Assembly: GCA_023460995.1 (NCBI GenBank)
Contig: JAEWOE010000002.1
Location: 77,809 to 141,808, forward strand
Length of the DNA: 64,000 nucleotides
Direction: 5' to 3'
DNA from: Bacillota bacterium
Lineage (GTDB): Bacteria; Bacillota_I; Bacilli_A; RF39; UBA660
Below are positions 4,737 to 50,711 of this stretch, piece after piece. The notes under the pieces are model-generated. The model did not search any database, had not been told where the DNA came from, and saw only the letters and a list, made by a program, of their open reading frames with translations. Each line of letters begins with the position of its first letter. Within the stretch, counting starts at the first letter, position 1. Both the position numbers and the translations under genes were made by a program.

Positions 4737-4755
4737 GTAATTGTAGGTGATAAAT

Positions 4756-5447: not shown

Positions 5448-5450
5448 ATA

Positions 5451-5520
5451 ACAAGTGTATTATACTACACATAATAGTAATACGCTTTTATATAGATTTA
5501 ACAAGTGTATCAAATTACAC
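5451..5520 (+). promoter_or_regulatory. two ACAAGTGTAT operator-like boxes (5451-5470 palindromic GTGTATTATACTACAC; 5501-5520 GTGTA-N6-TACAC)
   Basis: Direct repeat of ACAAGTGTAT 50 nt apart, each with an inverted-repeat partner TACAC. Same motif occurs at 4710. Confidence 0.45.
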
Positions 5521-5538
5521 TTAAAGAAAGGAAAGTAT

Positions 5539-7122: not shown

Positions 7123-7131
7123 GAGATTAAT

Positions 7132-8268: not shown

Positions 8269-8426
8269 AATCAATAAAAAAGCCAAAAAAATGTTGTTAT
8301 TCATATTTATTATGATATAATATTAATGGCTTTTTTAATACACACGACAATGATTTTTATGCCTAGTGCCTTATGGTGGTGTAAAAAGTTGATTTGTTCG
8401 GAGGAAAAACAAAAGGAGGAAATAAA

Positions 8427-9599
8427 ATGACAGTTGTTTCAATGAATTATTTATTAGAAGCAGGCGTTCACTTTGGTCATCAGACTAAAAGATGGAACCC
8501 AAAAATGAAAGAGTATATCTTTACTTCAAGAGATGATATTTATATTATCGATTTACAAAAAACTGCTAAAAAGATTGAAGAGGCTTATGCAGCTTTAAAT
8601 GCTATAGCAGCTAATGGTGGTAAAGTATTATTCGTAGGAACAAAAAAACAAGCAGTAGAGGCTGCTAAAGAAGAAGCTACTCGTTCAAATTCATTCTATG
8701 TTACAGAAAGATGGTTAGGTGGAACTTTAACAAACTTCAAAACAATTAGAAGCAGAGTTAAAAGATTAGAAGAAATCGAAAAAATGGAAAAAGATGGTAC
8801 TTTTGAAGTACTACCTAAAAAAGAAGTTATCGGTCTAAGAAAAGAGTATGCAAAACTTGATACTTTATTATCAGGAATAAGAGGAATGTATAAATTACCT
8901 AGTGCTATGGTTATAGTTGATCCTTCAAAAGAAGATATCGCTATTAAGGAAGCTAGAAAATTAAATATTCCAGTATTTGGTATCGTAGATACAAATTGTG
9001 ATCCTGATATGGTTGATTATGTAATCCCAGGTAATGATGATGCAATTAGAGCAGTTAAATTAATTTTAGGTGTTTTAGCTAATGCTATCGTTGAAGCTAA
9101 CGGTGGACAATTAGTAAATTATGTATCTGCTGATGAAAAACAACCAACTGATATTATGCAAAAAGCATTAGAAACAGTTAAGAGAAAAGAAGACAGACCA
9201 AGAAGATTTGATAATAATAGATCAAATGATAACAGATCAAATGACAGAAGAGATAACAACAGACCATTTAATAGATATAACAACAATAGACCTAATGATA
9301 ATAGATCAAATGATAGTAGACCTAGCGATAATAGATCGAATGATTATAGATCAAATGATAGAAGAGAATTTAGAAGAGAAGATAGACCAGTAGTAGAAGC
9401 TGTAAAACCTATAGTAGAAGAAAAAGTTGCTGTTAAGGAAGTTGCTCAAGTAGTAGCTCCAGTAGAAGTAAAAAAAGCCGTAGTTAAAGAAGATATGACT
9501 ACTAAAACAGTTGCAGAACTTCGTGATTTAGCAAAAGCTAAAGATGTAAAAGGTTATTCAACAATGAAAAAAGCAGAATTAATTGATGCTTTAAAATAA
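8427..9599 (+). CDS. rpsB: 30S ribosomal protein S2 with long C-terminal extension (N/D/R/S-rich linker plus Rho_N-like domain)
   Basis: [19 protein letters not shown]2 signature. GGAGGA RBS then ATG 8427. About 140 extra C-terminal residues ending [30 protein letters not shown]. Confidence 0.9.
9205..9370 (+). repeat. imperfect tandem repeat (about 15 nt unit AATAGATCAAATGAT) inside rpsB 3' region
   Basis: Repeated GATAATAGATCAAATGA(T/C)A units encode NDNRSND-type peptide repeats. Confidence 0.7.
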
Positions 9600-9608
9600 A
9601 TTATTTAT

Positions 9609-9638
9609 AGATGATTGAGAAATCATCTTTAATTTTAA
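9609..9638 (+). terminator. intergenic hairpin (partial terminator/attenuator) between rpsB and tsf
   Basis: AGATGATT-GAGA-AATCATCT stem-loop followed by TTAATTTT. Confidence 0.45.
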
Positions 9639-9653
9639 AAGGAGAAAAAATTT

Positions 9654-10529
9654 ATGATAAGTGCTAGTTTAGTAAAAGAATTAAGAGAATCTACAGGTGC
9701 TGGAATGCTTGATTGCAAAAAAGCACTAGAAGCTACTAATGGAGACATGGATGCTGCTGTAGATTGGCTAAGAGAAAAAGGTATTTCAAAAGCTGCTAAA
9801 AAAGCTGATCGTATTGCTGCTGAAGGTTTAGCTGAAATAAAAATTTCTGGAAATATTGCTGCTATAGTAGAAGTAAATTCAGAAACAGATTTTGTTGCTA
9901 AGAATGAAGAATTTACTTCAATGGTTGATGCAATTCTTACTACAATTATTGCAAATACTCCTGAAACAGTAGAAGATGTACTTGCTTTAACTTATGAAAG
10001 TGGAACAATTAATGATTTAATCGTTAATAAAACAGCTAAAATTGGAGAAAAATTATCATTAAGAAGATTCGAAAGAATTGAAAAAAATGATAATCAAGTT
10101 TTTGGTTCATACATTCATATGGGTGGAAGAATTGCTGTTTTAACATTAATTGAAAATGCTAGTGAAGAAGTTGCTAAAGATGTTTCTATGCATTCTGCAG
10201 CAATGAGACCTGCATATGTTAAATCTTCTGATGTTCCAACTGATGTACTTGACAAAGAAAAAGAAATAATGAAAGAACAATTACTAAATGAAGGTAAACC
10301 TGCTGATAGAATCGAAGGTATCCTAGTTGGTAAAGTTAAAAAATATTATGAAGATGTTTGTCTTGAAAATCAAATCTTTATTAAAGCAGAAAATAAAGAA
10401 ACAGTTGCTGAGTTCGTAGCTAATAATGGTGGAACAATTTCTACTATGGTTCGTTATGAAGTTGGTGAAGGAATGGAAAAAAGAGAAGAAAATTTTGCAG
10501 AAGAAGTTGCAAAACAAATTAACGGATAA
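9654..10529 (+). CDS. tsf: elongation factor Ts
   Basis: LVKELRESTGAGMLDCKKAL UBA-like N-terminus and conserved EF-Ts core. Confidence 0.95.
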   Translation: MISASLVKELRESTGAGMLDCKKALEATNGDMDAAVDWLREKGISKAAKKADRIAAEGLAEIKISGNIAAIVEVNSETDFVAKNEEFTSMVDAILTTIIANTPETVEDVLALTYESGTINDLIVNKTAKIGEKLSLRRFERIEKNDNQVFGSYIHMGGRIAVLTLIENASEEVAKDVSMHSAAMRPAYVKSSDVPTDVLDKEKEIMKEQLLNEGKPADRIEGILVGKVKKYYEDVCLENQIFIKAENKETVAEFVANNGGTISTMVRYEVGEGMEKREENFAEEVAKQING

Positions 10530-10601
10530 GAGATTAGTAATAATCTCTTTTTTAGTGTCAAAAAGTACAGCCAATTACATATACTAAAATAGGTGATATG
10601 C

Positions 10602-10970
10602 ATGGAAAAAGTCGCGTTATTTAAAGAGTTCGTCAAAAAAAACCCAATGTTATTAAAGTATATTAAAAATAATGAAATGACATGGCAAAAGTTTTACGAA
10701 ATATATGATATGTACGGAGAAGAAGACAGTGCTTGGAAAGATTATTTATCGGTAAAAGAAACTACCGCTGTTGCTGCAACTTCTGGTTTTGCACTTGGTG
10801 ATTTATTATCTTGGTTAAAAAACATTAATTTGGATAGTGTTCAAGAAGGTATGCAGAGTTTACAACGAGTAGTTAGCGTTATGGGCGATGTTTCAAATAA
10901 AAAGAATAATAACAATAATATGGATCCAGAATATAAACCAAGACCATTATACAAGCACTTTGATGACTAA
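10602..10970 (+). CDS. YlbD-like protein (putative coat protein family)
   Basis: Small protein with YlbD-like features; sits upstream of YlbE-like and rsmD genes as in B. subtilis ylbD-ylbE-...-ylbH. AGGTGA RBS then ATG 10602. Confidence 0.4.
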   Translation: MEKVALFKEFVKKNPMLLKYIKNNEMTWQKFYEIYDMYGEEDSAWKDYLSVKETTAVAATSGFALGDLLSWLKNINLDSVQEGMQSLQRVVSVMGDVSNKKNNNNNMDPEYKPRPLYKHFDD

Positions 10971-11191
10971 TGCAGTTAGATACACAGTTTAAATTAAAAC
11001 AAAATCCATATTATATTAATTATTTAAGAAGTAATTCATATTGGTATAAAATTCTTACGAGAGAACCTACAAAGGTAAATGACTTTATAGGAGAATTCAA
11101 AAAATACAATCGCCAAGTTAAGACAAATAAAATATCAGAAACTTTAGAATATATAGAGATGTTAGGAACTATAATGTCAAGTTTAAAATAA
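10970..11191 (+). CDS. YlbE-like small protein
   Basis: Start overlaps upstream stop (TAATG). Small conserved-type protein in ylb synteny; low sequence certainty. Confidence 0.4.
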   Translation: MQLDTQFKLKQNPYYINYLRSNSYWYKILTREPTKVNDFIGEFKKYNRQVKTNKISETLEYIEMLGTIMSSLK

Positions 11192-11219
11192 TATGATATA
11201 ATATTCCCTAGGTGATATT

Positions 11220-11759
11220 ATGCGTATAATAAGTGGTAAATATAAAGGAAGAAAAGTTGAAGGATATACCATAGATGGTACAAGACCTACTATGGATAGA
11301 GTAAAAGAATCTGTTCTTGGAATGATTCAAACTAAATTAGATGATAGTATATGTTTAGATTTATTTACTGGCAGTGGATCAGTAGGTATAGAGTTTCTTA
11401 GTAATGGTGCTAAGAAGTGTTATTTTGTTGATAATAATTATAAGGTTATAGAAACATTGAATAATAATATGAAATCATTAAAAGTTGATAATGAGTATGA
11501 AGTTATTAAAAATAATTTTGAAAATGCTCTTAAAGACTTTAATAATAGAGGGATTAAATTTGATATTGTTTTTCTCGATCCTCCATATAAATTAAATTAC
11601 ATTAATCCAGCTATTAGTTTAATAAAAGAATATGATTTACTAAATAATAATGGAATTATTATATGTGAGTATGAGAATGAAGAAATAAACACAGAAGAAT
11701 ATACGCTATTTAAAGAAAGAAAATATGGTAGTAAAAAAATTAATATATATAAAAAATAA
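11220..11759 (+). CDS. rsmD: 16S rRNA (guanine966-N2)-methyltransferase RsmD
   Basis: SGKYKGRK...RPTMDRVKES...LDLFTGSGSVGIEFLSNGA...FLDPPY motifs. Confidence 0.8.
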   Translation: MRIISGKYKGRKVEGYTIDGTRPTMDRVKESVLGMIQTKLDDSICLDLFTGSGSVGIEFLSNGAKKCYFVDNNYKVIETLNNNMKSLKVDNEYEVIKNNFENALKDFNNRGIKFDIVFLDPPYKLNYINPAISLIKEYDLLNNNGIIICEYENEEINTEEYTLFKERKYGSKKINIYKK

Positions 11760-11825
11760 TATCTTCTTGGAGATATTTTTTTGTTATTCTAATATTATTT
11801 ATGATATACTAAATTAGGTGATATT

Positions 11826-12947
11826 ATGAAAGAAAGATATAGTGCGTACTTACCAATATGGTTTGTATTAATGCTACCACCACTATCAATATTATTACTT
11901 GGTTGGAATTTTATATTATGTGGTTTAGGTTTAATGATAGGTTTATTAATAATGGGATTACCTAATGGATTTACTAAATATTCAAAAAATATTTTTAAAC
12001 TATGGGGGATAAGTATACTACTTGATTTTATTACTTTTATATTCCTATTAGCGCCTCAAATTTTAAGTAAAATAGATTTTTTTAATAATAATTTGGTTAA
12101 ACCAATAGAGTATAATCCATATTCTAAAGTTTTATCAGCTAGTTATATGACAGTTATATTTTTATTTATTTTATTTTTAGCGTATATTCTTATAAATAAG
12201 TTTGTAATAAAAGGAATAAGTGGCGATAAAATTAAAACTAGAATTATGAGATTTATAATAATTATATGTGTTTTACCATATCTTTTATTTGTTCCTAGTA
12301 CTTTTGTACTTAATGCTGAAAGAAATAATTTAGAGGATTTTAAAGGAACAATTCTTGGTAATAAATCAGAAGTAGTTACTATAATGAAGTACTTGTCTGT
12401 ATCTAATTACATTAGTTCATATGTACTTGATACTCATAAAGAACCATATTCAATGAATCTATATTTAGATCCTATTGATGTTAATTATGTTGCTAAGTTT
12501 GAAATGGATGCTGCAACCATATTTAATTTAATAGATGATGTTAATACAGTTAATTATTCAATGAATGGAATTAAATATACTTATACTATTAATAAGATTA
12601 ATAAAATTTTTAAAGATGTTAAGAATACTAAATTAAGTGAAATACTAAATAGATATACAGATGGTAAGTTTGTTAATTATATCTATTTAGATCATATAGG
12701 TAAATATGACATCTTTGATACATCAGAGTTATGTGAAGAGATAGTACAAGATTTATTTACTTATGAAGGAAACAAGTACTATTTAGTATGTAGTAGTTTA
12801 GAAAATATTAAGCTATTTCGTAATGGTGAAGAAGTTATGAGTTTAAAAGAAGCAATAAATGAAAAAATTATATCTGAAAAGGAATTAGTTGAAAGCCTTA
12901 TTCCAATAGAAACAGATCAGGAATTAGATGAAGATCCTAGTAACTGA
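11826..12947 (+). CDS. hypothetical membrane protein
   Basis: Four N-terminal TM helices then a soluble C-terminal domain; TAGGTGATATTATG start context. Confidence 0.5.
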   Translation: MKERYSAYLPIWFVLMLPPLSILLLGWNFILCGLGLMIGLLIMGLPNGFTKYSKNIFKLWGISILLDFITFIFLLAPQILSKIDFFNNNLVKPIEYNPYSKVLSASYMTVIFLFILFLAYILINKFVIKGISGDKIKTRIMRFIIIICVLPYLLFVPSTFVLNAERNNLEDFKGTILGNKSEVVTIMKYLSVSNYISSYVLDTHKEPYSMNLYLDPIDVNYVAKFEMDAATIFNLIDDVNTVNYSMNGIKYTYTINKINKIFKDVKNTKLSEILNRYTDGKFVNYIYLDHIGKYDIFDTSELCEEIVQDLFTYEGNKYYLVCSSLENIKLFRNGEEVMSLKEAINEKIISEKELVESLIPIETDQELDEDPSN

Positions 12948-13608
12948 TTTTGATAAAACATTCTTCACCAATAATTATGAAAAAAATATTGAGTTAGTAA
13001 ATGAGTTTGTTAAAAGTGGTAATGTATTTATTATAGCTACAGGAAGACCTATATATTTATTAGAACCAGATATTAATAAATATAATATAGATTATAGTTA
13101 CTTAATATGTAATGATGGGGCTGTTATATTTGACAATGGAAAAGGAAAAATATATGAAGATAATATGGATAAAGAAACCGCTGCAAATGTCTATAATGAA
13201 TTACATGATGATTTAAATTTAGAAAGAGTATTTATTGATAATACTTGCTCCTTTTCTACTGATCCTAATGATATTGTTAATGGTATTGTAGCTCTTCCTG
13301 TTGATAGACAAAAAGCTTTAGATACTATTGATTATCTTTGTAATAAATATCCTAATATTCAAGGATATTTAAGTCATAAGTGGGTAAATATTTTAACTAA
13401 GAATGCTTCAAAAGGCAATGCCATAAAATGGCTTGCTAATATAAATAGATGGGATATTAGTGAGATAATTACAGCTGGTGATAATAAAAATGATCTTTCT
13501 ATGAGTAAAGATTTCAATAGTTACGCTATTGAGGGTAATATTGAACTTATGAATCAAACAAAACATGTAGTAAAAGATTTTGCGGAAATGATGGAAGAAA
13601 TAAAATGA
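12928..13608 (+). CDS. HAD-superfamily (Cof-type) hydrolase
   Basis: DFDKTFF motif I, IIATGRP motif II, AGDNKNDLSM motif IV. Confidence 0.75.
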   Translation: MKILVTDFDKTFFTNNYEKNIELVNEFVKSGNVFIIATGRPIYLLEPDINKYNIDYSYLICNDGAVIFDNGKGKIYEDNMDKETAANVYNELHDDLNLERVFIDNTCSFSTDPNDIVNGIVALPVDRQKALDTIDYLCNKYPNIQGYLSHKWVNILTKNASKGNAIKWLANINRWDISEIITAGDNKNDLSMSKDFNSYAIEGNIELMNQTKHVVKDFAEMMEEIK

Positions 13609-13982
13609 AAGTATTAAGTATTAGACAGCCATGGGCTACTCTTATAGTAAAAGGGTATAAAAAATATGAGTTTAGAACCTGGAAAACAAAATATCGCGGA
13701 GAATTATATATTCACGCAAGTAAAGGTGTAGATAAGAATGTGCTAAAGCACTTTGAAAGTTTAGGTTTAGATTATCCGGTGGGATGTATAATTGGAAAAG
13801 TAATTTTAAGTGATTGTGTTCCAGTAACAGAAGAATTTGAAAATAATTTAATAAAAGAAAGTAGTCTTGTTTATGGATTAAGTAAGGGTAGGGGTGGTTA
13901 CGGTTTTAAAGTAACCAACCCAGAAGAAATAGATAAAATTTATGTTAATGGAAAACTTAGTATTTGGGAATATAAAAAATAG
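13605..13982 (+). CDS. ASCH (PUA-like) domain protein
   Basis: SIRQPWATLIVKGYKKYEFRTW ASCH N-terminal signature. Confidence 0.6.
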   Translation: MKVLSIRQPWATLIVKGYKKYEFRTWKTKYRGELYIHASKGVDKNVLKHFESLGLDYPVGCIIGKVILSDCVPVTEEFENNLIKESSLVYGLSKGRGGYGFKVTNPEEIDKIYVNGKLSIWEYKK

Positions 13983-13990
13983 ACTTTCGT

Positions 13991-14857
13991 CTATTTTTTT
14001 TCATATAATTTAATATCTTCTTTCGCCTTTTCAATAGGTACTAATTCTTGCCTTAATGAATTTAATTGCTCTAATTTTTCACTAATTGATAAATCATTAT
14101 TGACTTCTTTGATCTCTTTTTTATTTATTATAATTTCTTTTTTCTTTGAATATTCTTTTTCATTTTCTTCATTACTGTATAAAAAAGACTCATCACTTGG
14201 TAAATTTTTAAGTTCTTTTAATTCTTCGTCTTTTTTATAATTAGTGTAATATTTAGTGGCAGTTATAGCTTGAAGAGTACCAGTAATTGCAATCAAAGTG
14301 GCAATTATTGTTGGATTTATAAAAGTTACCATGCTGATATAGCTTATTAACATTGTTAGTGATAAGGAGCCAGTTTTGATTTTCCCGACAATTGTTGTTC
14401 TTGGTTTATTATCATTTAATCTTGAATGCATATTAATTGCTGCTATTAATGTTTCAAGTATTAGGGTTACAAGCATCACAGGATTTAAAATGCAAAGTGG
14501 TATAAGTAAACTTCCAGCAAAAAGTTTATCAGTAATAGGATCTAGTTCTCTACCAAATTCACTAGTAGCATTATATTTTCTAGCATACCAACCATCACAA
14601 AGATCAGTAAAGGCAAAGCCACCAGTAAATAACATGGTAAGAAATAAATTGCCTGACAAAGCTGAAGGAATTATAAAAAATGGAGCAAAAAGTCTAGAAG
14701 CGGTAAAAGCATTAGGAATCTGTTTATGTCTAGTTTCTTTGTTTTTGAACTCCTTAATGCATTTTTTTCCTTCCATGACAAAAACCTTCCAATTATTTAT
14801 AAAACTCTCCTTATCGTCTTTACACTTCTTTTTTAATTTAGTTATTTTATCTAACAT
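13991..14857 (-). CDS. CDP-alcohol phosphatidyltransferase (PgsA-like) with about 100-aa C-terminal charged/coiled-coil extension
   Basis: DLCDGWYARKYNATSEFGRELDPITDK (DGx2ARx8Gx3Dx3D motif). Extra C-terminal KE-rich tail. Confidence 0.7.
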   Translation of the reverse strand: MLDKITKLKKKCKDDKESFINNWKVFVMEGKKCIKEFKNKETRHKQIPNAFTASRLFAPFFIIPSALSGNLFLTMLFTGGFAFTDLCDGWYARKYNATSEFGRELDPITDKLFAGSLLIPLCILNPVMLVTLILETLIAAINMHSRLNDNKPRTTIVGKIKTGSLSLTMLISYISMVTFINPTIIATLIAITGTLQAITATKYYTNYKKDEELKELKNLPSDESFLYSNEENEKEYSKKKEIIINKKEIKEVNNDLSISEKLEQLNSLRQELVPIEKAKEDIKLYEKK

Positions 14858-15038: not shown

Positions 15039-18000
15039 ATGAAGAAACTATTAAAAATAATATTATGTATGTCTATAATTCTTTCTAATTTTAGTCCTCT
15101 TTTTGTTAGTAAAGTTAAAGCAGCAGGAATTTATACTGTCGCGATTGCTTATGCTGATAAAGATGTTGATCAAGCTTCTTATGATACATATGATGCTGCA
15201 GTAACTGCTATGAATGCAATTAATTCAAATGATCAAGCGGTAGCAATTATAAAAAATAGTAGTGGACGTATAATAAATGCCAAGTATGCTATAGCTGAAA
15301 TAGATTATCATAATTATATAAAAATAACTACTAGGGATGAGGGTGATAAGTATTTATATTCTACTCCTCAAGATGCAGTAAGTGCTTCTCCAAACAATGC
15401 TAATTTCTTAGCAGCAACAGCCTCAACTTGGGGATCTGACTCAGCTTTTCTAGATTATAATAATACATATCAAGCGGTAAAAGTTAAAATAAGTGGTTTA
15501 ACTGGTTGGATTGCACTATGGGATGTAAGTATAATTCCTATATCAAGATATTATGAATTAAATAATCCTACTAATTATCCAAATAATCGTGCAACAATTA
15601 AGGCCTTAAAAGATGGTGTTAGATTAAGAGCCACTCCGTCTTTAAGTGGGGTAGAAATTGGAAAAGTTTCTGTTACTGGAGCAAGTTACAGGTATTATCC
15701 ATCTGGAACAACATTAGCAGAAGGCTATACATGGTACAAAGTACAATATGATGCTGATACAGTTGGTTATTTTGCTGATAATGGAACGTTCTTTTCAGTA
15801 ATAGATACGTTCAAAAATGATACATATTATTATGTTTATAATAATGTTTTATATCATCAAATACATATGGGTTATGCATTTCCTGAATCAAATACAACTT
15901 TAGGAGATGCACCTTATTACTATGATACAAATGGTAAACATTATCTACTTAGTAATTCTAGTGGTGAAAGAACAGCGGCAAATATTCGTTATTATAGTTT
16001 TGACAGTAACTATTTTTATTCATCTTTTACAAAAATGATTGATGATTATAGATTAGGTGTATATACAAATGCTGTTAATGCAAGTTATCCATATTATCCA
16101 TATTTTATGTATTTGCCAAGTCATGCTAAAACTAATTATGTAGCTGGAACTTTTGATAACTTAATAACAAAGGCTGGATATTCAAGTTTTCCAGTTAATC
16201 CAAAAACTTATGTTAATCCTAGTACAGGAACTTTTTATTCAGGAAGTGCACCAGCAAATCAATCAATGATGTATGGTATAGGATCAACATTAATAAGTGT
16301 TGCTAATACCTATGGTGCTAATGCGCTTACGCTTTACTCAGTAGCAAAAGTTGAGTCAGGTTTTGGAACAAGTGCTATATCATTTTATAAGAATAATTTA
16401 TATGGTATGGGAGCAAGTGATGATAATCCGTTTGGAAATGCAACAACATATAATACAGTAGGAGACTCTGTTTTAGATTATGCTAGGCAAATAGGGCAAA
16501 CTTCATATGCTAATATATTTGATTACAGGTATAGGGGTACTCATTTAGGGAACAAACTAAGTGGTCAAAATATATATTATGCAACTGATCCATATAGTGG
16601 TGAGGCTAAAGGTGGAAGTGCTTACTGGGTTGATAGTGCCAGTGGTAAAATAGATAATAATGCTAATACTTTAGGTGTTACGAGAAGTACTTCAGCGGCT
16701 ACTAAAATCTATTCTGAGCCTAACTCATCAAGTACTGTTATTTATGAAACTAAAAATTACTCTTCAAATAAGGTAATTACTAATATGCCGTTTATTGTAA
16801 CTGACAAAATTAATGTAATAGAGAATGGTCAATCAGCAGTATATTATAAAGTTTATACGGATGTTTCATTAACATCTACAAGACTTCTTACATCAGATAC
16901 AAATGTTATGTATAATTTTGAAAATTGTTATGGATATATTAAAGAAGCTGATTTATATGTAGCAAATAATCAACCTGTAATATCAGCTAGTAATAGAACT
17001 GTAAAACAATATGATACTGTTAATTTATTAACAGGTGTTACAGCTACTGACTTAGAGGATGGCATTTTAACAGGAGATGTTACTGTTTCTAATAATGGTG
17101 GTTATGATATTGAAAAACCTGGAACTTATGTAGTAACTTATACTGTTACAGACAAATCAAAATATAGTGTTTCTAAGGAGGCTACTATTACCGTTGAACC
17201 TAGTGGTAGACCAACAATAGTTGCACCAGATATTGAAACACCACAATTTAAGCCGTTTGACTCTAAAAAAGGTGTTTCTGTACAAGATATAGATGCCGCA
17301 GATCAAAATCTAATTAATAATGTGACTGTAAGTGGAACAGTCGATGTTACAAAAATAGGGGAATATACTTTAACATATACTGTAATTGATACTTATGGTT
17401 CAACTGATACTAAAACTAGAAAAGTTACGGTAGTTGCTAATGAAAAACCGGTTATTAATGCAATAAATCTAACGACATATAAAGGGCAATCATTTAATCC
17501 AATGACAGGAGTTACAGCTACTGATAAAGAAGATGGTGATGTATCAAATTCTATTTCTTACACAGGTTCAGTTGATATGTCAACAATAGGTACATATGAG
17601 CTTACTTATACTGCTAAAGATTTAGATAATCAAGAATCTACAAAAACTATTACCATAACAGTAGAAGAAAAAAAATATACATCAGCTACAGGTATGTTTT
17701 ATTTAAGTAATTTAACTTACAACGAGAACACAACAAAAATTGATTTTACTGGTTATTTAGTAATAAAAGGTATGAATAATACAGTAAGTACTGATATTTC
17801 ATATGACATAATATTTGAAAATCAAAACAACGGTAATACAACTATAAAATCTTTATCAAGATTAACTAGTAATGTTCCATTTGCCGTACCAAACTCTGGT
17901 GGTTTTGATTATTCAGGATCTTGGTTTAAAGAATCACTTAATTTAACAGATTTACCAAGTGGTGATTACACCGTTTATGTAAGAGCAAGAAGTGGTGATT

Positions 18001-18629
18001 ATGAAGCTAAAGTACTATTAAAGAATGAGTATTTTAACACTAAAGTAGCACGCAAATTCACTATTGGTACATCAGGATATCAATTTAGAATTAATTATTA
18101 TAATAGATCTTTACCACTTGAATTATTTGTTAGAAAAAATGGACTAATATCAAGTGTCAATAATCCAACAATCGATAATATGTATAACCAAGTTTATTCA
18201 ATAAGTTTAAGTGGTACAAAGCTTATATTAAAAGCATCTTCTCATAATGTTCAAGGTAATTATGCATCTAGTCAAAATATTGAAAGAGATATTTTATTTG
18301 AGAACGTTGATACATTAGAAATTGCTAAAACAGTTAATGTTGGTGCAATAACAAATGGACCATATAAAGTTAACTTAAAAGTTAGTGATGGTTATGATAA
18401 AACAAAGGTATGGTATTACACTGGTGATAATGGAATTGATTTAGCTGATCTTCCAAAAGGTAAATACTCTATTATTGTTAGAACTAAAGCTGGTTCTATT
18501 GATGATTATGGTGAACTATATGACGTATTATATATGAACATCGATCAGTCACAAAAAATTGGTGATAAAACAATATCTATAAAACGAAATAAAGATATAC
18601 GATATCGTATTGAAATAACTGTAGAATAA
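15039..18629 (+). CDS. secreted cell-wall hydrolase: SH3b-like, N-acetylglucosaminidase (LytD/FlgJ-like), three Ig-like (DUF5011-type) repeats and a C-terminal beta-rich region
   Basis: Signal peptide. AKVESGFGTSAISFYKNNLYGMGA glucosaminidase motif. Three repeats of P(V/T)I...TATD.EDG...GTY.LTYT.D pattern. Confidence 0.75.
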   Translation: MKKLLKIILCMSIILSNFSPLFVSKVKAAGIYTVAIAYADKDVDQASYDTYDAAVTAMNAINSNDQAVAIIKNSSGRIINAKYAIAEIDYHNYIKITTRDEGDKYLYSTPQDAVSASPNNANFLAATASTWGSDSAFLDYNNTYQAVKVKISGLTGWIALWDVSIIPISRYYELNNPTNYPNNRATIKALKDGVRLRATPSLSGVEIGKVSVTGASYRYYPSGTTLAEGYTWYKVQYDADTVGYFADNGTFFSVIDTFKNDTYYYVYNNVLYHQIHMGYAFPESNTTLGDAPYYYDTNGKHYLLSNSSGERTAANIRYYSFDSNYFYSSFTKMIDDYRLGVYTNAVNASYPYYPYFMYLPSHAKTNYVAGTFDNLITKAGYSSFPVNPKTYVNPSTGTFYSGSAPANQSMMYGIGSTLISVANTYGANALTLYSVAKVESGFGTSAISFYKNNLYGMGASDDNPFGNATTYNTVGDSVLDYARQIGQTSYANIFDYRYRGTHLGNKLSGQNIYYATDPYSGEAKGGSAYWVDSASGKIDNNANTLGVTRSTSAATKIYSEPNSSSTVIYETKNYSSNKVITNMPFIVTDKINVIENGQSAVYYKVYTDVSLTSTRLLTSDTNVMYNFENCYGYIKEADLYVANNQPVISASNRTVKQYDTVNLLTGVTATDLEDGILTGDVTVSNNGGYDIEKPGTYVVTYTVTDKSKYSVSKEATITVEPSGRPTIVAPDIETPQFKPFDSKKGVSVQDIDAADQNLINNVTVSGTVDVTKIGEYTLTYTVIDTYGSTDTKTRKVTVVANEKPVINAINLTTYKGQSFNPMTGVTATDKEDGDVSNSISYTGSVDMSTIGTYELTYTAKDLDNQESTKTITITVEEKKYTSATGMFYLSNLTYNENTTKIDFTGYLVIKGMNNTVSTDISYDIIFENQNNGNTTIKSLSRLTSNVPFAVPNSGGFDYSGSWFKESLNLTDLPSGDYTVYVRARSGDYEAKVLLKNEYFNTKVARKFTIGTSGYQFRINYYNRSLPLELFVRKNGLISSVNNPTIDNMYNQVYSISLSGTKLILKASSHNVQGNYASSQNIERDILFENVDTLEIAKTVNVGAITNGPYKVNLKVSDGYDKTKVWYYTGDNGIDLADLPKGKYSIIVRTKAGSIDDYGELYDVLYMNIDQSQKIGDKTISIKRNKDIRYRIEITVE

Positions 18630-26316: not shown

Positions 26317-26375
26317 TTGACTATTTTTTTAACTTGTTATATTATATTATTAGATGATATGGGAGGGTATAACAT

Positions 26376-27128
26376 ATGAAATTTAAAAACGGAAAGAAAT
26401 TTTTAATGGTTTTATGTGCAGCTTTTATTCTAACGGGATGTGCTTCAAAAGATTTGAAAAATGCATATAATAAAATGAGTGTTGGGGATGGGAAGGACCA
26501 AATAAACGGTTATTCATTAAGTATTAGACTATTTGGTTTATATAACGATGAAAAGGTTAATCAATCAATAAGAATTCAAAATTATTTAGGTGATAATTAT
26601 AAAGTAGTTGATTCAAGTAATGAAGAAATTACATATTATGTAGTTGATGGTAAGAAATTTAAATCAGTTGCTAAGGAAGCAAAAAATGTTGATGATGATT
26701 ATAACACAAATGGATTTCAAACAGGTTTTGATACTACTAAAACAGTTACTACTTATGAAGAAACTGATGATGTACCATTTGTTGATACTGATTTATACTT
26801 AACTAGTTTAAAATCAGCCAAAAAAATAAGTGATTCTTCAGAAGAAAAAATAGGTGATTTATCATATACTACTTATGAATATACAGTAGCTAAAAAGACA
26901 ATGGTTAAGATTTTAACTGGATCTGTTTTAAAAGATATAGAATTTAAAACTGATATTCCAGCAAAAGTATGGATTGATAGTGATGGATATGTATATAAAA
27001 TAGAATATGATTTAGCAAAAGGTATAGAATCTGAAAGTACTTTATCTTTGAATGTTTACTATAATGCTGTTAATAATTCAAATGAGATTAGTATTGATGA
27101 AGTAAATTTACAAAATAGTGATAAATAA
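26376..27128 (+). CDS. hypothetical lipoprotein
   Basis: Signal peptide with lipobox LTGC. Confidence 0.6.
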   Translation: MKFKNGKKFLMVLCAAFILTGCASKDLKNAYNKMSVGDGKDQINGYSLSIRLFGLYNDEKVNQSIRIQNYLGDNYKVVDSSNEEITYYVVDGKKFKSVAKEAKNVDDDYNTNGFQTGFDTTKTVTTYEETDDVPFVDTDLYLTSLKSAKKISDSSEEKIGDLSYTTYEYTVAKKTMVKILTGSVLKDIEFKTDIPAKVWIDSDGYVYKIEYDLAKGIESESTLSLNVYYNAVNNSNEISIDEVNLQNSDK

Positions 27129-27154: not shown

Positions 27155-27228
27155 TTTAATACGACAAATATTGACTATTTTTTCTATTTGTTATATCCTA
27201 AATATAGATTAGAATAGTAGGTATAAAT

Positions 27229-28917
27229 ATGAAAAATAAAATAGGTTTTACATTAATTGAATTACTTGCAATTATAGTTTTAATTGGTTTGATAGCGTTA
27301 GTTATAACTCCAAAAATAAAAGAAACTTTAACTAAACAAGAGATGAAATCGTTTGAAACAGGTGTTGAAGGAATAATAAAAGCAGTAAAACAAGATATTG
27401 TTAATAATTCTAGCTTTAATTCATCAACTTCTAACTATAGAGCATACTCTTATGGTGCAGATGGATTATATTTAACTGTCTCAGGAAATCAAGCGGTTGA
27501 ATCTAGTGTAAGTATATCAGGTAATATAAAAAATGGTTTTGGCACAGTAATTGCCACAAATAATTCTGATATTATTTTGGCTGTACATGACGATAAATTT
27601 TGTGCTAAAAAAAGTGCTGATGATACAAATATTACAGTTGAAGAGTATACAGGGAGTTGCATAAATGACGAAATTAGTATTCCTGAAGTAACTTCATGTT
27701 ATATTTATGATACTAACCCAGATGATACACTAACTATAACTGGATATAAATATGAGGATAGTACATGTTCAAAGGATCTAATCATTCCTAATAAAATTAA
27801 TGGTAAAAAGGTATCGAAAATTGCGAATTTTGCTTTTGTTGATGCTGAAGTTATATTAGCTAGTTATATAGACTATGATGCTGAAGGAAATGAACATTGG
27901 TATGACGAATTTTTAGACAATATTCCTGATGGTAAAGATATTGTTTGGTTTGAGACTACGAATTTAGCTAATATTAATAGTAAATATTGTTATACTGATA
28001 TGGATGAAGAAAATGAAGCTGATGTTGGATTAAGTTATATTCATACTGAAGGTGATGGATATTATGGTTGTGAATATGATTTTGCCCAGTTAGGTGATTT
28101 AGGAAAAAATAATTACAATATTCAAAGTATTGATTTTTCTCATGCTACGGAGTTAACAGAGATACCTTTAGGTCTTGCTTTTAGTTCAACTATTTCTTCT
28201 ATAAATATAGGTAGTTATATTTATAGCGTTAATTCCTTTGCTTTTGCAGATAATTTCATATCAAGTTTATCTATTCCAGCCAATATAACTTCAATAGGTA
28301 CTTTTGCATTTTATGAAAATAATATTAATAGTTTAGATCTATCTTTGGCAACTTCCTTAAAAGATATAAAGGCCGGAGTTTTTGCTGGAAATATGTTAAA
28401 TAACTTAACCATAAAAAATTTAAATAATTTAGAAAGCATATCTGGTGGTGAATGGGGATCATTTGAAGAAAATTTTCTAACATCAGTTACGCTTGAAAAC
28501 TTGCCCAATTTAACTAATATTGGTCAGTTTGGTGACTCATACGGACCATTTAATTATAATTCTATAACTTCGCTAACTCTTTCTAACTTACCTAATTTAA
28601 CTACAATTGGTGCATGGGCATTTTATGATAATAAAATAGCTAGTTTGAACCTAGTAAATTCTCTTACTTCAATTGGGGAAGGCGCGTTTGCCGCCAATAA
28701 TTTAACTAGTGTTACTATTCCATCTAATGTTACTGTAATCGATGATAAAGCTTTTGCTAAGTGTGGTTGTGGTGAAGGCTCAGATAATGCTGATTTAGTT
28801 GCAATTCAAAATAAAACAGGAAGAAGTTTTGACTGGTCAAAAATTATAGGAGTTGGTAGTACAGCTACATGTTCATTTATAACTGGAACATGCAGTACTG
28901 TAAATATAACTGGATAA
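27229..28917 (+). CDS. prepilin-type (type IV pilin-like N-terminus) protein fused to BspA-like leucine-rich-repeat surface domain
   Basis: MKNKIG/FTLIELLAIIVLIGLIAL class III signal with Glu+5. Repeated IPxNxTSIGxxAF LRR units in the C-terminal half. Confidence 0.65.
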   Translation: MKNKIGFTLIELLAIIVLIGLIALVITPKIKETLTKQEMKSFETGVEGIIKAVKQDIVNNSSFNSSTSNYRAYSYGADGLYLTVSGNQAVESSVSISGNIKNGFGTVIATNNSDIILAVHDDKFCAKKSADDTNITVEEYTGSCINDEISIPEVTSCYIYDTNPDDTLTITGYKYEDSTCSKDLIIPNKINGKKVSKIANFAFVDAEVILASYIDYDAEGNEHWYDEFLDNIPDGKDIVWFETTNLANINSKYCYTDMDEENEADVGLSYIHTEGDGYYGCEYDFAQLGDLGKNNYNIQSIDFSHATELTEIPLGLAFSSTISSINIGSYIYSVNSFAFADNFISSLSIPANITSIGTFAFYENNINSLDLSLATSLKDIKAGVFAGNMLNNLTIKNLNNLESISGGEWGSFEENFLTSVTLENLPNLTNIGQFGDSYGPFNYNSITSLTLSNLPNLTTIGAWAFYDNKIASLNLVNSLTSIGEGAFAANNLTSVTIPSNVTVIDDKAFAKCGCGEGSDNADLVAIQNKTGRSFDWSKIIGVGSTATCSFITGTCSTVNITG

Positions 28918-28932: not shown

Positions 28933-29523
28933 TTATTCTTCAATTAATATATCATTAGAAATATTAAATTCTATACAGTTAGAATTTAGTATTTCTTTTA
29001 TTTTAGCCAGTTTTTCATTATTTATATCAAAAGAATATTTTATGTTTTGATCATATGTTTTATCCTTGATTTGAACATCTTTTAGTGTATTATCAATTAA
29101 TTTTATTTTTTCATAATTAAAAACTATTGTAACTGTTTTACCACTTACTATCTTCTTAATTTTGGTTATTTTTATACATTCAGAAGCACTTTTTGAATAA
29201 GCTCTAACTAGACCACCAGCACCTAATTTAATTCCACCAAAATATCTAATAACAATACATAATACATAATTTAAGTTATTATTTTCTAGTACGTTAAGTA
29301 TCGGTAATCCAGCTGTACCACTAGGTTCACCATCATCACTAAATCTTTTTATATTATTTATTATATAACTATAGCAGTAGTGAGTAGCGTATTTGTATTC
29401 ATGTTTTATGCTATCTAAGTATGTATATATATCATCTTCGTTATATATTTTTTTATATACACATATAAATTTTGATTTGCTTATTATTATTTCATTTTTA
29501 ATATTTTCACTTATAGTGTACAT
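28933..29523 (-). CDS. yigZ: IMPACT/YigZ family protein (UPF0029)
   Basis: GEPSGTAGLPILNVLE and RYFGGIKLGAGGLVRAY motifs. Hairpin GAAGAA-ATTA-TTCTTC at 28926-28941 overlaps the 3' end. Confidence 0.8.
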   Translation of the reverse strand: MYTISENIKNEIIISKSKFICVYKKIYNEDDIYTYLDSIKHEYKYATHYCYSYIINNIKRFSDDGEPSGTAGLPILNVLENNNLNYVLCIVIRYFGGIKLGAGGLVRAYSKSASECIKITKIKKIVSGKTVTIVFNYEKIKLIDNTLKDVQIKDKTYDQNIKYSFDINNEKLAKIKEILNSNCIEFNISNDILIEE

Positions 29524-29600
29524 AAAATCACCTAAGTAGATTATACATTATTAATATTTGAAAAACAAATAGATATGATATAATATCCCTAGGTGATATC

Positions 29601-30215
29601 ATGAAATATGGAATAAAAGGTTATGGAGATAATGAAGTAATAAAAAGTTTTAATGAAGCAAATAATAAAATTGAAGCCCTTATGTTAGATGGTAGTATTA
29701 AAACATATCCAATAGATTCTAAAGAAGATATCAAGAATAAGCAAAGAGAACAGTCTATAGATTTTTCTTCTAATTATGAGTCTTACACACTTAGTTTAAT
29801 ATTTAGTATGATGCTTATTGTATTAACTATTATTATAATTATAATGAGAGTTAGTATTATAGCTTTCGATGTTGCTATAAAGAATTTAGGACTAATTGGT
29901 ATATCCCCATGGCTACTAGGTATGTATGCTATTGGTAATCCAATAATTAAAGTATGTAATAAGAAGTTAGTTAAAATTTATAAACCCAAAATTGAAAAAG
30001 CAGAAGAAAAAGGAAAACATGGTACATATTTAAAATATGAAAAGGAATATAAAAAAAGTGAAGTTAGTTTAAATAATATTGATAATTATTCAATAGAAGA
30101 ATTAATAGAAATTAAAGAAAAACTTTTGCAACTATCTAGTGAAATAGTAGTAGAGCAAAAAGATATAGAAAAACCAAAAGTTAAGGGATTAACTAGTAAT
30201 AACAAACTTCGCTGA
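29601..30215 (+). CDS. hypothetical membrane protein
   Basis: Two central TM helices and a KE-rich C-terminus. Start context CCCTAGGTGATATCATG duplicates that of rsmD. Confidence 0.5.
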   Translation: MKYGIKGYGDNEVIKSFNEANNKIEALMLDGSIKTYPIDSKEDIKNKQREQSIDFSSNYESYTLSLIFSMMLIVLTIIIIIMRVSIIAFDVAIKNLGLIGISPWLLGMYAIGNPIIKVCNKKLVKIYKPKIEKAEEKGKHGTYLKYEKEYKKSEVSLNNIDNYSIEELIEIKEKLLQLSSEIVVEQKDIEKPKVKGLTSNNKLR

Positions 30216-30229
30216 AAGAGGTGATTTAT

Positions 30230-31999
30230 ATGGATTATATTAAGAAGAAATTAGCACTTGTTCCAAATGAACCAGGATGCTATCAAATGAAAAATAAAGA
30301 TGGAATAATAATATATGTAGGTAAAGCTAAAAAACTTAAGAATAGATTATCTTCATATTTTAGAGGTACACATACTGGCAAAACAGCTAAACTTGTTAGT
30401 GAAATAGTCAACTTTGAATATATTGTGGTTGGTACTGAAACAGAGTCACTAGTATTAGAACTTAATTTAATTAAAAAATATGATCCAAAATATAATATAT
30501 TACTTCGTGATGACAAAACTTATCCATATATAGAATTAACTAATGAGAAAGTGCCTAAATTAGCAGTAGTTAGAAATGTTAATCGCAAGAGAAAAAATCA
30601 AACAAGATTATTTGGACCTTATCCAAATGTTACAGCGGCAAGATACACAGTTAATTTACTTAATAGAATATATCCTTTAAAAAAATGTAATACTTTTCCT
30701 AAAAAACCATGTCTATATTATCATATAGGGCAGTGTTTAGGTTACTGTGCTATTGAGATACCTAGAGAACAAATAGTAGCCATGGAAAATGAGATACTTA
30801 GTTTCTTAAGAGGCAATGATGATATTGTTATAAAGAAACTCGAAAATGAAATGTATTTAGAAAGTAGTAAAATGAATTATGAAAAAGCAAAAGAGTTAAA
30901 GGAAATGCTTGATTATATTAAAGTTACTATGGCAAGACAAAAAGTAGAAATTAATGATGTAACTGATCGTGACATTTTTGGATATTATACAAATAAAGGT
31001 TATATAAGTATAACCGTTTTATTCATTCGTGGTGGTAAAATACTTGAAAGGCATTCTAAAATAATGCCTATGATAGATGAAGTTGAAGAAGAATTTAATA
31101 GATATATAGCTAAGTTTTATGAAAAAGATATTATTATGCCAAAAGAAATTTTAGGGCCTTCTATTACAGATTCAGAATTACTTGAGAATTATTTAGAATT
31201 GCCTGTTAGAATACCTTTAAAGGGTACAAAGAAAAATTTAGTAGATATGGCAAGTGATAATGCTAAAGTTGTATTAAATGAAAAGTTTGAACTTATTAAA
31301 AGAGATGAAGATAGAACTTCAAGTGCTAATGATGAACTTAAAAAGATACTAAATTTAGATACTCTAGATCGTATTGAGTTATTTGATAATTCTAATCTAT
31401 TTGGTAGTTATAATGTTTCAGGTATGGTTGTATTTGTTGATGGTAAGCCTAGTAAAAACGATTATCGTAAATTTAAAATTAGTATTGATAAGAATGATGA
31501 CTATGGAACGATGAGGGAAGTTATTTATCGTAGATATTATAGAGTTCTCGTAGATGACTTAAAGAAACCCGATTTAATTATTGTAGATGGTGGTTTAGGA
31601 CAGATTAATATAGCTAGAAGTGTAGTTGATAGTCTAGGTCTTAATATCCCTGTAGTAGGGCTTAAAAAAGATAATAAGCATACAACTGAAAGTCTTCTTG
31701 CAAAAGATCCTATAATAGAAATTCCTATAGATAAAAAGAGTAATGTTTTCTATTATCTAGAAAGAATGCAAGATGAGGTTCATAATTTCACTATTAATTA
31801 TCATAAGCAGTTAAGAAGTAAAGGTTCACTTGAAAGTATACTTGATAGTATTGATGGTATTGGTACTAAAAGAAGAAATGAGCTATTAAAAAAATACAAA
31901 ACAATAACCAAACTTAAAGAATTAACTAAAGTGCAGTTAGAAGAAATAATTCCTTCTAAAGTTGCTGAAAATTTAATAGAATTTTTAAATAATTATTAA
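30230..31999 (+). CDS. uvrC: excinuclease ABC subunit C
   Basis: GIY-YIG N-terminus (GCYQMKNKDGIIIYVGKAKKLKNRLSSYF), UvrBC and RNaseH-like/HhH C-terminal regions. AGAGGTGA RBS. Confidence 0.95.
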   Translation: MDYIKKKLALVPNEPGCYQMKNKDGIIIYVGKAKKLKNRLSSYFRGTHTGKTAKLVSEIVNFEYIVVGTETESLVLELNLIKKYDPKYNILLRDDKTYPYIELTNEKVPKLAVVRNVNRKRKNQTRLFGPYPNVTAARYTVNLLNRIYPLKKCNTFPKKPCLYYHIGQCLGYCAIEIPREQIVAMENEILSFLRGNDDIVIKKLENEMYLESSKMNYEKAKELKEMLDYIKVTMARQKVEINDVTDRDIFGYYTNKGYISITVLFIRGGKILERHSKIMPMIDEVEEEFNRYIAKFYEKDIIMPKEILGPSITDSELLENYLELPVRIPLKGTKKNLVDMASDNAKVVLNEKFELIKRDEDRTSSANDELKKILNLDTLDRIELFDNSNLFGSYNVSGMVVFVDGKPSKNDYRKFKISIDKNDDYGTMREVIYRRYYRVLVDDLKKPDLIIVDGGLGQINIARSVVDSLGLNIPVVGLKKDNKHTTESLLAKDPIIEIPIDKKSNVFYYLERMQDEVHNFTINYHKQLRSKGSLESILDSIDGIGTKRRNELLKKYKTITKLKELTKVQLEEIIPSKVAENLIEFLNNY

Positions 32000-39399: not shown

Positions 39400-39490
39400 T
39401 ATAACTGTGTAGAGCCTTACTCTACAACCGCGCAGAGAAGGTTTTAAGCTATATTAGCACCTTAATGGCGAGTCTTAGAGGAACGGAGGA
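39400..39490 (+). ncRNA. ribosomal protein L21 leader (cis-regulatory RNA upstream of rplU)
   Basis: Locally GC-rich structured segment (GTAGAGCCTTACTCTAC, CGCGCAGAG...) in the canonical position upstream of rplU in Firmicutes. Confidence 0.55.
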
Positions 39491-45603: not shown

Positions 45604-45906
45604 TTATTTTATATAATCGCCAACTTTATAGTTGTAGTAATTAACTGGAGACTCGTATGCATAATACACATTTTTTTTAGGTAATATTACCTTATATGGT
45701 TTTATATTTTTATATATATATAATATCTTATTATTTTTATCTGTCATATGAACATCTATATTAATAAACATGAACATAGTATGAATACTATTACATCTTG
45801 GAAAGCACAATATATAATTAACTTTTCTTTTAAACATTAGTCCAAAGAATCTTGAAAAAAAACTTTTACAAATAATAACATCTAACTTATTCATATTCTT
45901 CACCAA
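45604..45906 (-). CDS. DUF192-family protein
   Basis: FFGLMFKRK...CFPRCNSIHTMFMFINIDV matches conserved DUF192 core (GLMF...CNSIHTFFM...IDV). Divergent from the flp operon. Confidence 0.55.
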   Translation of the reverse strand: MVKNMNKLDVIICKSFFSRFFGLMFKRKVNYILCFPRCNSIHTMFMFINIDVHMTDKNNKILYIYKNIKPYKVILPKKNVYYAYESPVNYYNYKVGDYIK

Positions 45907-45929
45907 TCATATTATAACATAAAAAGTAA

Positions 45930-45958
45930 TTGACAAAAATATATAAAAAGTATAAAAT
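45930..45958 (+). promoter_or_regulatory. promoter TTGACA-17-TAAAAT for flp/tad operon
   Basis: Consensus -35 with A/T-rich -10 about 40 nt upstream of flp ATG; GGTAGGAGG RBS follows. Confidence 0.45.
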
Positions 45959-45996
45959 TGAAGTATAAAAGGGTAGTAATTGGGTAGGAGGATTTT

Positions 45997-46191
45997 ATGA
46001 ATAATAAAGGACAAGCTTTAGTAGAGTATTTATTAATAATTGCTTTAATTAGTGTTATTGTAGTAAGTCTAGTTAAGTTACTAGGAGGATACTTACAAGA
46101 TTCTGTTACCAAGTCATCTTGTAATTTAATTGACAAAGTTTATGTAGCAGGGGAAAAACCAGGCGAAGGTTACTGCGCAGAATCAGAATAG
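45997..46191 (+). CDS. flp: Flp/Fap-family type IVb (Tad) pilin
   Basis: 64-aa protein, MNNKG/QALVEYLLIIALISVIVV Flp motif (G-x4-EY) then hydrophobic helix. Confidence 0.7.
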   Translation: MNNKGQALVEYLLIIALISVIVVSLVKLLGGYLQDSVTKSSCNLIDKVYVAGEKPGEGYCAESE

Positions 46192-46201
46192 AATAGTTTT
46201 T

Positions 46202-46236
46202 AAAAGAAGAAATATTTATGTACTTCTTCTTTTTTA
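46202..46236 (+). terminator. intra-operon hairpin/terminator immediately after flp pilin gene
   Basis: AAAAGAAGAA-loop-TTCTTCTTTT then TTT. Confidence 0.55.
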
Positions 46237-46292
46237 TTGTTTAATTAGTCGTTTTTTGGTATAATCTTATTAAGATATGCGAGTGTGATTAT

Positions 46293-46667
46293 ATGATAAA
46301 AGATATAAGGAATAGCAAAGGGCAAGCTTTAGTAGAATTTGTTCTTGTAATGCCTATTTTTATCTTTATTATTATGGCTATGATAGATTTAGGAAATATT
46401 ATATATAAAAAGTATAATCTAGAAAATACACTTGATACGGTAGTAGAATTATATAGGCAAGGAGAAAGTCAAAAGATGGCAGCCTATGCATCAGTTGAAA
46501 ATATTGATTTGGATATTTCTTCTGTTAGTACTGATTTAACTAAAGTATCTGTTACGAAAACTATAAATATAATAACACCAGGATTAAATAATATACTCGG
46601 CAAAGATTATACCTTATCAGTAGATAGAACTATTTTTTTTGAAAAGGAAACGTCTATAAATGAATGA
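46293..46667 (+). CDS. TadE-like pseudopilin
   Basis: KGQALVEFVLVMPIFIFIIMAMIDLGNII TadE N-terminal signature. Confidence 0.65.
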   Translation: MIKDIRNSKGQALVEFVLVMPIFIFIIMAMIDLGNIIYKKYNLENTLDTVVELYRQGESQKMAAYASVENIDLDISSVSTDLTKVSVTKTINIITPGLNNILGKDYTLSVDRTIFFEKETSINE

Positions 46668-47052
46668 TAGAAAAGGACAAGTTTTAGTTGCCTTTGTCTT
46701 ATTAATACCAGTAATAATAATGCTGCTGGCGTTAATAGTAGATGTTGGTTTTCTATATGTAGAAAAAAGAAATACTGATAATGTGGTAAGGGATATAACA
46801 AATTATGGGCTTGATAACTTAAATTTAGAAAAAGATATATTACAAGGAAAGATAACTGAGTTAATTAATGCTAATTTAGACGATATACAAAATCTTAATA
46901 TAAATATTGATACTAACAGTGTTGAAATAGATATAACAAGAAATAAGCAAAGTATATTTTCAAATGTATATAAAAAAGCAAGTTATAAAATAACTTCAAA
47001 TTATATTGGTAACATTAATAATTCTGTAAATGATGTAAGGAAGGAGTCATAG
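46660..47052 (+). CDS. TadE/TadF-like pseudopilin
   Basis: KGQVLVAFVLLIPVIIMLLALIVDVG; overlaps the previous gene. Confidence 0.6.
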   Translation: MNDRKGQVLVAFVLLIPVIIMLLALIVDVGFLYVEKRNTDNVVRDITNYGLDNLNLEKDILQGKITELINANLDDIQNLNINIDTNSVEIDITRNKQSIFSNVYKKASYKITSNYIGNINNSVNDVRKES

Positions 47053-47053
47053 T

Positions 47054-49205: not shown

Positions 49206-49213
49206 GTGATAGT

Positions 49214-50707: not shown

Positions 50708-50711
50708 TAAA

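Follow-up and report, generated by a model that had tools for sequence, protein, structure and literature searches.

BspA-like surface proteins with leucine-rich repeats (LRRs) carry Sec signals together with lipid, choline-binding, LPXTG or type IX secretion system (T9SS) tails. Modular pilins, such as Streptococcus sanguinis PilB (with a vWA module) and PilC (with a lectin module), consist of a class III signal, a small pilin module, a short linker and a bulky ligand-binding module. The modular architecture IPR012902-IPR026906, in which IPR026906 is the InterPro entry for the BspA-type LRR region, was the seventh most frequent type described by Raynaud et al. 2021 (PMC8179133); Dataset S1 of that paper includes 18 such proteins and 6 more with two LRR hits, and the LRR cargo was grouped among modules of "no clear function". 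In the Kil/Tad system of Myxococcus, large modular minor pilins encoded off the main locus (the KilL/M/N sets) customize the tip (PMC12075869).

Here, we analyzed a 64,000-nucleotide stretch of DNA from a Bacillota bacterium of the UBA660 lineage (contig JAEWOE010000002.1, positions 77,809 to 141,808; hereafter the window), in which the gene at 27229-28917 encodes a 562-aa protein (hereafter the LRR pilin) that is probably a surface adhesin of this uncultured low-GC gut bacterium. By its predicted domains, the LRR pilin falls under the modular-pilin definition of Raynaud et al. 2021, with a pilin module followed by LRR_5, and it has the same overall layout as PilB and PilC, whereas its cargo is of the BspA-type LRR class, its gene is an orphan rather than part of a pil operon, and its host is an uncultured low-GC gut member of the Bacilli rather than a streptococcus. 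It shares the LRR_5 family and the solenoid fold with the BspA-like LRR proteins (Tannerella BspA, PcpA 4cp6, Treponema pallidum TpLRR 6mlx, and the gut proteins 4h09, 4gt6 and 4fs7) but, unlike them, would be anchored through a prepilin N-terminus and a pilin head. The window resembles the Myxococcus Kil system in containing a Tad operon; unlike the Tad/Flp tip complexes (TadE/F/G), however, the LRR pilin has an N_methyl signal and no TadE or Tad match in Pfam. A full-text literature search returned no paper combining "modular pilin" with "leucine-rich repeat"; the design has already been catalogued, and as far as this search shows, no example has been characterized experimentally. The protein itself would not surprise specialists, and what appears worth following is the expansion of LRR pilins in gut lineages and the linkage between Tad operons and N_methyl pilins. 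The parts of the LRR pilin gene are as follows.

27229-28917, + strand: LRR pilin gene, 562 aa, leader MKNKIG/FTLIELL (open reading frame)
27229-27246, + strand: leader peptide MKNKIG, with predicted prepilin-peptidase cleavage after Gly6 (conservation and register against mature pilins)
27247-27648, + strand: predicted pilin module, α1 helix (model residues 9-59) and antiparallel β-sheet head (residues 70-139)
27700-28764, + strand: BspA-type LRR solenoid, residues 158-512 (repeat list, LRR_5, Protein Data Bank (PDB) profile matches and Foldseek)
28765-28914, + strand: C-terminal tail of 50 residues with Cys512/514/548/555, low-confidence model (Cys positions and model confidence)

The N-terminus of the LRR pilin reads MKNKIG followed by FTLIELLAIIVLIGLIALVITP, which gives a basic leader, Gly(-1), Phe(+1), Glu(+5) and a hydrophobic stretch. 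Across 24 aligned homologues with overall identity down to 28%, F7, T8, L9, E11, L12, A14, I16 and P28 were invariant, and G6 and G20 were at least 90% conserved. Conserved residues in mature numbering include F1, E5, G14 and P22, the hallmarks of polymerizing type IVa pilins; cryo-electron microscopy of type IVa pili has shown that α1 melts between G14 and P22 once assembled. Position 7 of the family profile aligns to residue 1 of mature filament pilins, with register matches to S. sanguinis PilE1 (8pfb, E 8.5e-8), Pseudomonas aeruginosa PAK pilin (1oqw) and PilA (8tum), and it is this register that places the predicted cleavage site at G6|F7. The full-length AlphaFold2 model had a mean predicted local distance difference test score (pLDDT) of 85 and contained a helix at residues 9-59, seven strands between residues 70 and 139, followed by a solenoid modeled with confidence; residues 1-156 modeled separately gave a pLDDT of 83. 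As modeled, the N-terminal module is a pilin fold in which a long α1 packs on an antiparallel β sheet.

The LRR part was identified by Pfam LRR_5 (PF13306; 91.5 bits, cut-off 27.7) and by PDB profile matches to BspA-like surface proteins and PcpA with E values from 1e-33 to 5e-50, including 4h09 (4.7e-50), 4fs7, 4gt6 and PcpA 4cp6, as well as to TpLRR 6mlx. Foldseek likewise retrieved the BspA-like structures 4h09, 4fs7, 4gt6 and 4fdw as well as the pneumococcal adhesin PcpA and TpLRR, and there was a partial NCBIfam match to the streptococcal LRR adhesin HupY/LrrG. The preliminary description of this DNA, made from the sequence alone, had counted at least eight BspA-type LRR units; we counted ~10, namely one at 182-205 and nine between 298 and 512, with an insertion of ~90 residues (206-297) separating the first unit from the others. 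It had also reported a Cys-rich tail, and cysteines are indeed present, but they number four (512, 514, 548 and 555) in the last 51 residues. The pLDDT of the tail was below 50 at residues 550-562.

Two further genes in the window encode proteins of the same prepilin type.

52914-54002, + strand: 362-aa prepilin, leader MMYVFRNEKG/FTLAELL (open reading frame, N_methyl and TIGR02532)
54029-54418, + strand: 129-aa prepilin, MKNKG/FTLTELI, with the size of a classical pilin subunit (N_methyl and TIGR02532)

The three open reading frames were confirmed at the positions first proposed. A loose prepilin regular expression applied to all six frames of the window (27.3% GC) matched there only, each match being immediately behind the start codon of a long open reading frame. 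In 200 shuffles with dinucleotide content approximately preserved, the pattern occurred 0.13 times on average and twice at most, compared with the three observed matches. The 362-aa and 129-aa prepilins scored 26.7 and 28.2 bits, respectively, for Pfam N_methyl (PF07963; cut-off 21.2). Both were also recovered by TIGR02532 (31.2 bits for the 129-aa prepilin, and over the cut-off for the 362-aa prepilin), which did not report the LRR pilin. Residue 11 of the 362-aa prepilin, which has an alternative in-frame TTG start upstream at 52881, aligns with residue 1 of mature pilins, and residue 6 of the 129-aa prepilin aligns with residue 1 of mature pilins and GspG. The claim that the three signals are near-identical was overstated: over the first 30 mature residues, the 562-aa and 129-aa proteins agree at ~16 positions, which reflects only the general pilin consensus (F1, E5, G14 and P22). 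We considered the 129-aa prepilin as a strongly conserved major subunit and rejected this idea, as its best match had just 47% identity, compared with 62-85% for the Flp pilin of the window across eight related Tad loci. The C-terminal domain of the 362-aa prepilin (~230 residues, ~130-362; window 53300-54002) had no Pfam match and recurs in many N_methyl proteins of relatives, with 50% identity in locus L029 and several copies in L058 (loci and proteins used for comparison carry L and P numbers); to judge from this recurrence, it is an undescribed pilin cargo module.

We consider it reasonably likely, although far from certain, that the LRR pilin is cleaved at G6|F7, anchored by α1 and loaded at or near the tip of a type IV filament, where it serves as an adhesin; the earlier proposal of a tip adhesin or minor pilin is supported in part. 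In this scheme, a prepilin peptidase encoded elsewhere would remove the leader MKNKIG after Gly6, and the hydrophobic α1, with F1, E5, G14 and P22, would first anchor the protein in the membrane and then dock into the helical core of the filament. The position in the filament would most likely be the tip or near it, because a module of ~45 kDa hangs from a small pilin head. The LRR solenoid would then bind a ligand on a host, dietary or microbial surface and thereby mediate adhesion. Such a scheme has been shown experimentally for S. sanguinis PilB (PMC8179133). LRR pilins may be a main route by which uncultured gut Bacilli with reduced genomes attach to host or microbial surfaces, and the present protein is a compact, well-modeled candidate for ligand screening.

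Several results weigh against this scheme. The LRR pilin gene is monocistronic and lies amid housekeeping genes, outside any pilus operon. Its N_methyl score of 19.7 bits is slightly below the cut-off given above, so that, of the two Pfam families named in the preliminary description, LRR_5 was far above its threshold and N_methyl marginally under. When the N-terminal module was compared with the PDB by Foldseek, no pilin and no significant match came up. No Peptidase_A24, PilB or PilC gene was found in the window (as had been stated there for the peptidase), in the 10 kb on each side (~84 kb in total) or in L168, a 22-kb locus from the ENA sample of the window, and no canonical four-member set of priming minor pilins was visible. 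In L172 (7598-10771) and L174 (7396-12309), whose SigA and DnaG are 87-88% and 50-58% identical to those of this genome, pilC-pilD directly follows trmK-yqfQ, downstream of comEA-comEC-dnaG-sigA, and L174 has a PilB-type ATPase at the same site. This genome keeps the neighborhood, but rpsO and pnp follow yqfQ (L087 19537-20594), indicating that the cluster was moved or lost. A Tad-class machine is the only one for type IV filaments in view, and the subunits known for this class are of the Flp and TadE types and not N_methyl.

The marginal N_methyl score and the lack of a nearby peptidase would also suit a conventional Sec-secreted LRR surface protein with a fortuitous resemblance to prepilins. 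We rejected this explanation as scarcely credible, since it accounts neither for a glutamate within the hydrophobic segment and an invariant G-F-T-L-x-E nor for a continuous 50-residue helix, a pilin-like head and a register-exact alignment to mature pilins. In addition, relatives have stand-alone pilins of ~130 aa with homology to residues 1-140 of the LRR pilin, and most orthologues of the LRR pilin have a precomputed PF07963 match.

Public assemblies contained an identical protein (P0001) and ~18 orthologues spanning 48-82% identity, of which one had 82% and ~16 had 48-57%, as well as many more distant proteins joining PF07963 to PF13306; the relatives are uncultured metagenome-assembled genomes labeled "Bacilli", "Mycoplasmatota" or "Tenericutes". 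At the closest genome locus, L006, from a congener, synteny is complete (xerC-tdk-ppdK-lipoprotein-LRR pilin-Impact_N(-)-uvrC-...-mutL). Identity between L006 and the window was 56% for the LRR pilin but 91-95% for PPDK, UvrC and MutL, and this faster divergence suggests selection on binding or antigenicity. The best-conserved part of the LRR pilin was its first 30 residues (73-97% among closer orthologues), and the least conserved were the insertion 206-297 and the C-terminal tail. Orthologues have one of two alternative C-terminal endings: the Cys tail is common only to P0002, P0005 and P0017, and extra LRRs terminate the others. This pattern is as would be expected for a constrained assembly module joined to an exposed, fast-evolving binding module.

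Related genomes encode many N_methyl proteins, from 120 to 1900 aa, and appear from their predicted products to hold a large and varied repertoire of surface proteins with class III signals. L168 adds two LRR pilins and another two N_methyl genes; its GC content (27.7%) and tetranucleotide correlation with the window (0.992) are compatible with, but do not prove, origin from the same genome. Such a repertoire bears on a different explanation, in which the class III signal serves for export and anchoring and the protein stays tethered by α1, or in a short pseudopilus, with the LRR module exposed and without polymerization. Archaeal bindosome proteins, which carry class III signals, offer a likeness. 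The large N_methyl proteins of relatives (300-1900 aa), scattered amid housekeeping genes or in tandem and bearing modules that include LRR, vWA and pectate lyase, resemble a general stock of surface proteins more than a collection of pilus subunits, and no PilB/PilC-type ATPase or platform was found near any of ~75 such loci in uncultured Bacilli. By contrast, the conservation of F1, E5, G14 and P22 argues for polymerization, because G14 and P22 would be needless for anchoring alone, and PilB/PilC/PilD are encoded in relatives. We regard display without polymerization as unlikely, although it deserves to be kept in mind. Within the same repertoire, five LRR pilins of ~675 aa each lie in tandem in L019 (4171-14932), and related genomes also encode N_methyl proteins of ~1100 and ~1900 aa as well as N_methyl fusions to vWA and to pectate lyase (L079 4901-15334; L173 1-317; L169 15562-17337).

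Returning to the favored scheme of a cleaved, filament-borne adhesin, we looked for the enzymes that would process and assemble it. Scanning the window by regular expression for the GxGDxK peptidase motif and for the Walker A motif of T2SSE yielded nothing further, and no type IV filament genes were found in the 10 kb past either end. Searches seeded with the L009 PilD and P0186 did not return a peptidase of this genome among the best 120 matches, a result that is uninformative rather than negative evidence because the family has thousands of members. Conservation of the family among uncultured Bacilli is very high, with >120 clusters at 63-71% identity to P0186, and in L009 a gene for an LRR pilin of 345 aa lies 3 kb downstream of pilC-pilD. 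Six proteins of the window are prepilin-type substrates (the three N_methyl proteins, Flp and the two TadE-like ones), and G(-1) and E(+5) are conserved in them, from which we infer that a prepilin peptidase is encoded elsewhere in the genome. For assembly, we favor by analogy a PilB/PilC/PilD-type system, a machine not seen in this genome, because relatives have one and the protein bears the type IVa hallmarks.

Competence genes begin near the end of the window.

62974-64000, + strand: comEA and the start of comEC, DNA-uptake genes (Pfam SLBB/HHH_3; Competence, Lactamase_B)

These genes lie ~9 kb downstream of the pair of pilin genes at 52914-54418, and no comG genes were visible. A Com-like DNA-uptake filament working with ComEA/ComEC, to which the N_methyl proteins belong, with the LRR protein as an accessory minor pilin, would fit their presence and also the relatives in which pilC-pilD(-pilB) shares its neighborhood with comEA-comEC-dnaG-sigA. 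NCBIfam gave matches of the N-terminus of the LRR pilin to GspG, ComGC and ComGD, all sub-threshold; the scores for ComGC (22.3 bits, cut-off 75) and ComGD (20.4 bits, cut-off 70) were far too low to support membership. Moreover, it is not evident what an LRR module would do in DNA capture, and 34 kb separate the LRR pilin gene from comEA; we regard a competence pseudopilus as very improbable. Flp_Fap, TadE and Tad were not matched in the Pfam scan of the LRR pilin either, and on these family scores it is a member of neither the Flp/TadE family nor the ComG family.

The window also contains a complete Tad/Flp (type IVc) operon at 45997-51488, which the preliminary description did not mention; it is followed by murC and then by the 362-aa and 129-aa prepilin genes. 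Its genes are as follows.

45997-46191, + strand: Flp pilin, MNNKG/QALVEY (sequence; Flp_Fap 21 bits, under the 32.2 cut-off)
46293-46667 and 46660-47052, + strand: two genes for TadE/TadF-like minor pilins (TadE 42.8 and 27.0 bits; Tad 22.6 bits)
47054-47881, + strand: TadZ/CpaE-like ATPase (Pfam AAA_31, CbiA and MipZ)
47874-49205, + strand: TadA/CpaF ATPase (TIGR03819 331 bits; T2SSE 200.9 bits)
49214-50707, + strand: TadB (Pfam T2SSF 44.8 bits)
50712-51488, + strand: TadC (Pfam T2SSF 59.6 bits)

The TIGR03819 score of TadA, although under the cut-off of 373, compares with 58 bits for ComGA and 44 bits for PilB in NCBIfam. An unusual feature of TadB is an extracellular Ig-like domain at its N-terminus (Bact_surface_Ig-like, 24.5 bits). 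Upstream of flp, in divergent orientation, is a DUF192 gene (region 45604-51488), homologues of which precede flp in L030 and also occur in L060.

In L030, two N_methyl pilin genes begin 2 bp past tadC, and the Tad operon with these two pilins (3461-14668) sits between Impact_N and uvrC, the genes that neighbor the LRR pilin in the window (28933-31999). This arrangement suggests that the Tad and pilin loci once adjoined each other and that a rearrangement parted them. A sample of Tad loci drawn through TadA, and hence unbiased regarding the pilin motif, contained three loci (L088, L089 and L115) with an N_methyl gene ~1-2 kb downstream of tadC, but most Tad loci at 60-67% TadA identity had no N_methyl gene nearby. 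The linkage is thus real, although limited to the nearest sub-lineage, and it raises a testable question about the specificity between pilins and machines.

These linkages, in the window, in L030 and in the TadA-drawn loci, are grounds for a further explanation, namely that the Tad/Flp machine builds an Flp filament on which the N_methyl modular pilins, including the LRR protein, are interchangeable tips, by analogy with the scattered KilL/M/N tip sets of Myxococcus. The leaders of the Flp, TadE and N_methyl proteins are alike, each being short with KG at the end, a large TadG-like pilin is missing from the operon, and Tad pili with exchangeable, separately encoded tips have been documented (PMC12075869). 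The restriction of the linkage to the closest sub-lineage stands against this explanation, as do the type IVa hallmarks of the LRR pilin and its lack of a TadE, Tad or Flp match. To our knowledge, there is no case of a Tad machine polymerizing N_methyl-type pilins. We treat the association of the LRR pilin with the Tad machine as a hypothesis based on synteny and judge a Tad-displayed tip to be quite unlikely. The broader proposal, that the Tad/Flp machine and not PilB/PilC handles the scattered N_methyl modular pilins in this sub-lineage of low-GC, wall-bearing gut Bacilli, seems to us equally doubtful; if true, a single machine would serve a hybrid of two pilin classes.

The gene immediately upstream of the LRR pilin gene and the region between them have the following features.

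26376-27128, + strand: gene for a 250-aa lipoprotein, upstream neighbor of the LRR pilin (signal ending in LTGC; synteny)
27171-27226, + strand: promoter-like 5' region of the LRR pilin, TTGACT-17-TATCCT, with AGTAGGT just before the ATG (consensus match)

The lipoprotein gene occupies the same position in L006 (9138-9890, 73% identity), and a homologue with 27% identity adjoins another N_methyl protein of the LRR family in L029 (12503-13159). As this neighborhood recurs in another genome, the lipoprotein and the LRR pilin may be functional partners. The 5' regions of the LRR pilin (27171-27226) and lipoprotein (26317-26372) genes are 71% identical over 56 nt, and both begin with TTGACT and finish with GGTATAA ahead of the ATG, which hints at a shared promoter design and co-regulation. 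The promoter and terminator scan as a whole was near background, with 43 promoter-like sites compared with 33.5 expected in DNA of 27% GC. None of the pilin genes had a riboswitch or another RNA element nearby according to Rfam, whose sole match in the window was a ribosomal protein L21 leader (RF00559, 51 bits) at 39416-39485, upstream of rplU. Elsewhere in the window, 15039-18629 encodes a predicted surface protein of 1196 aa with glucosaminidase, Big_3 and Ig-like domains, which is probably a large autolysin.

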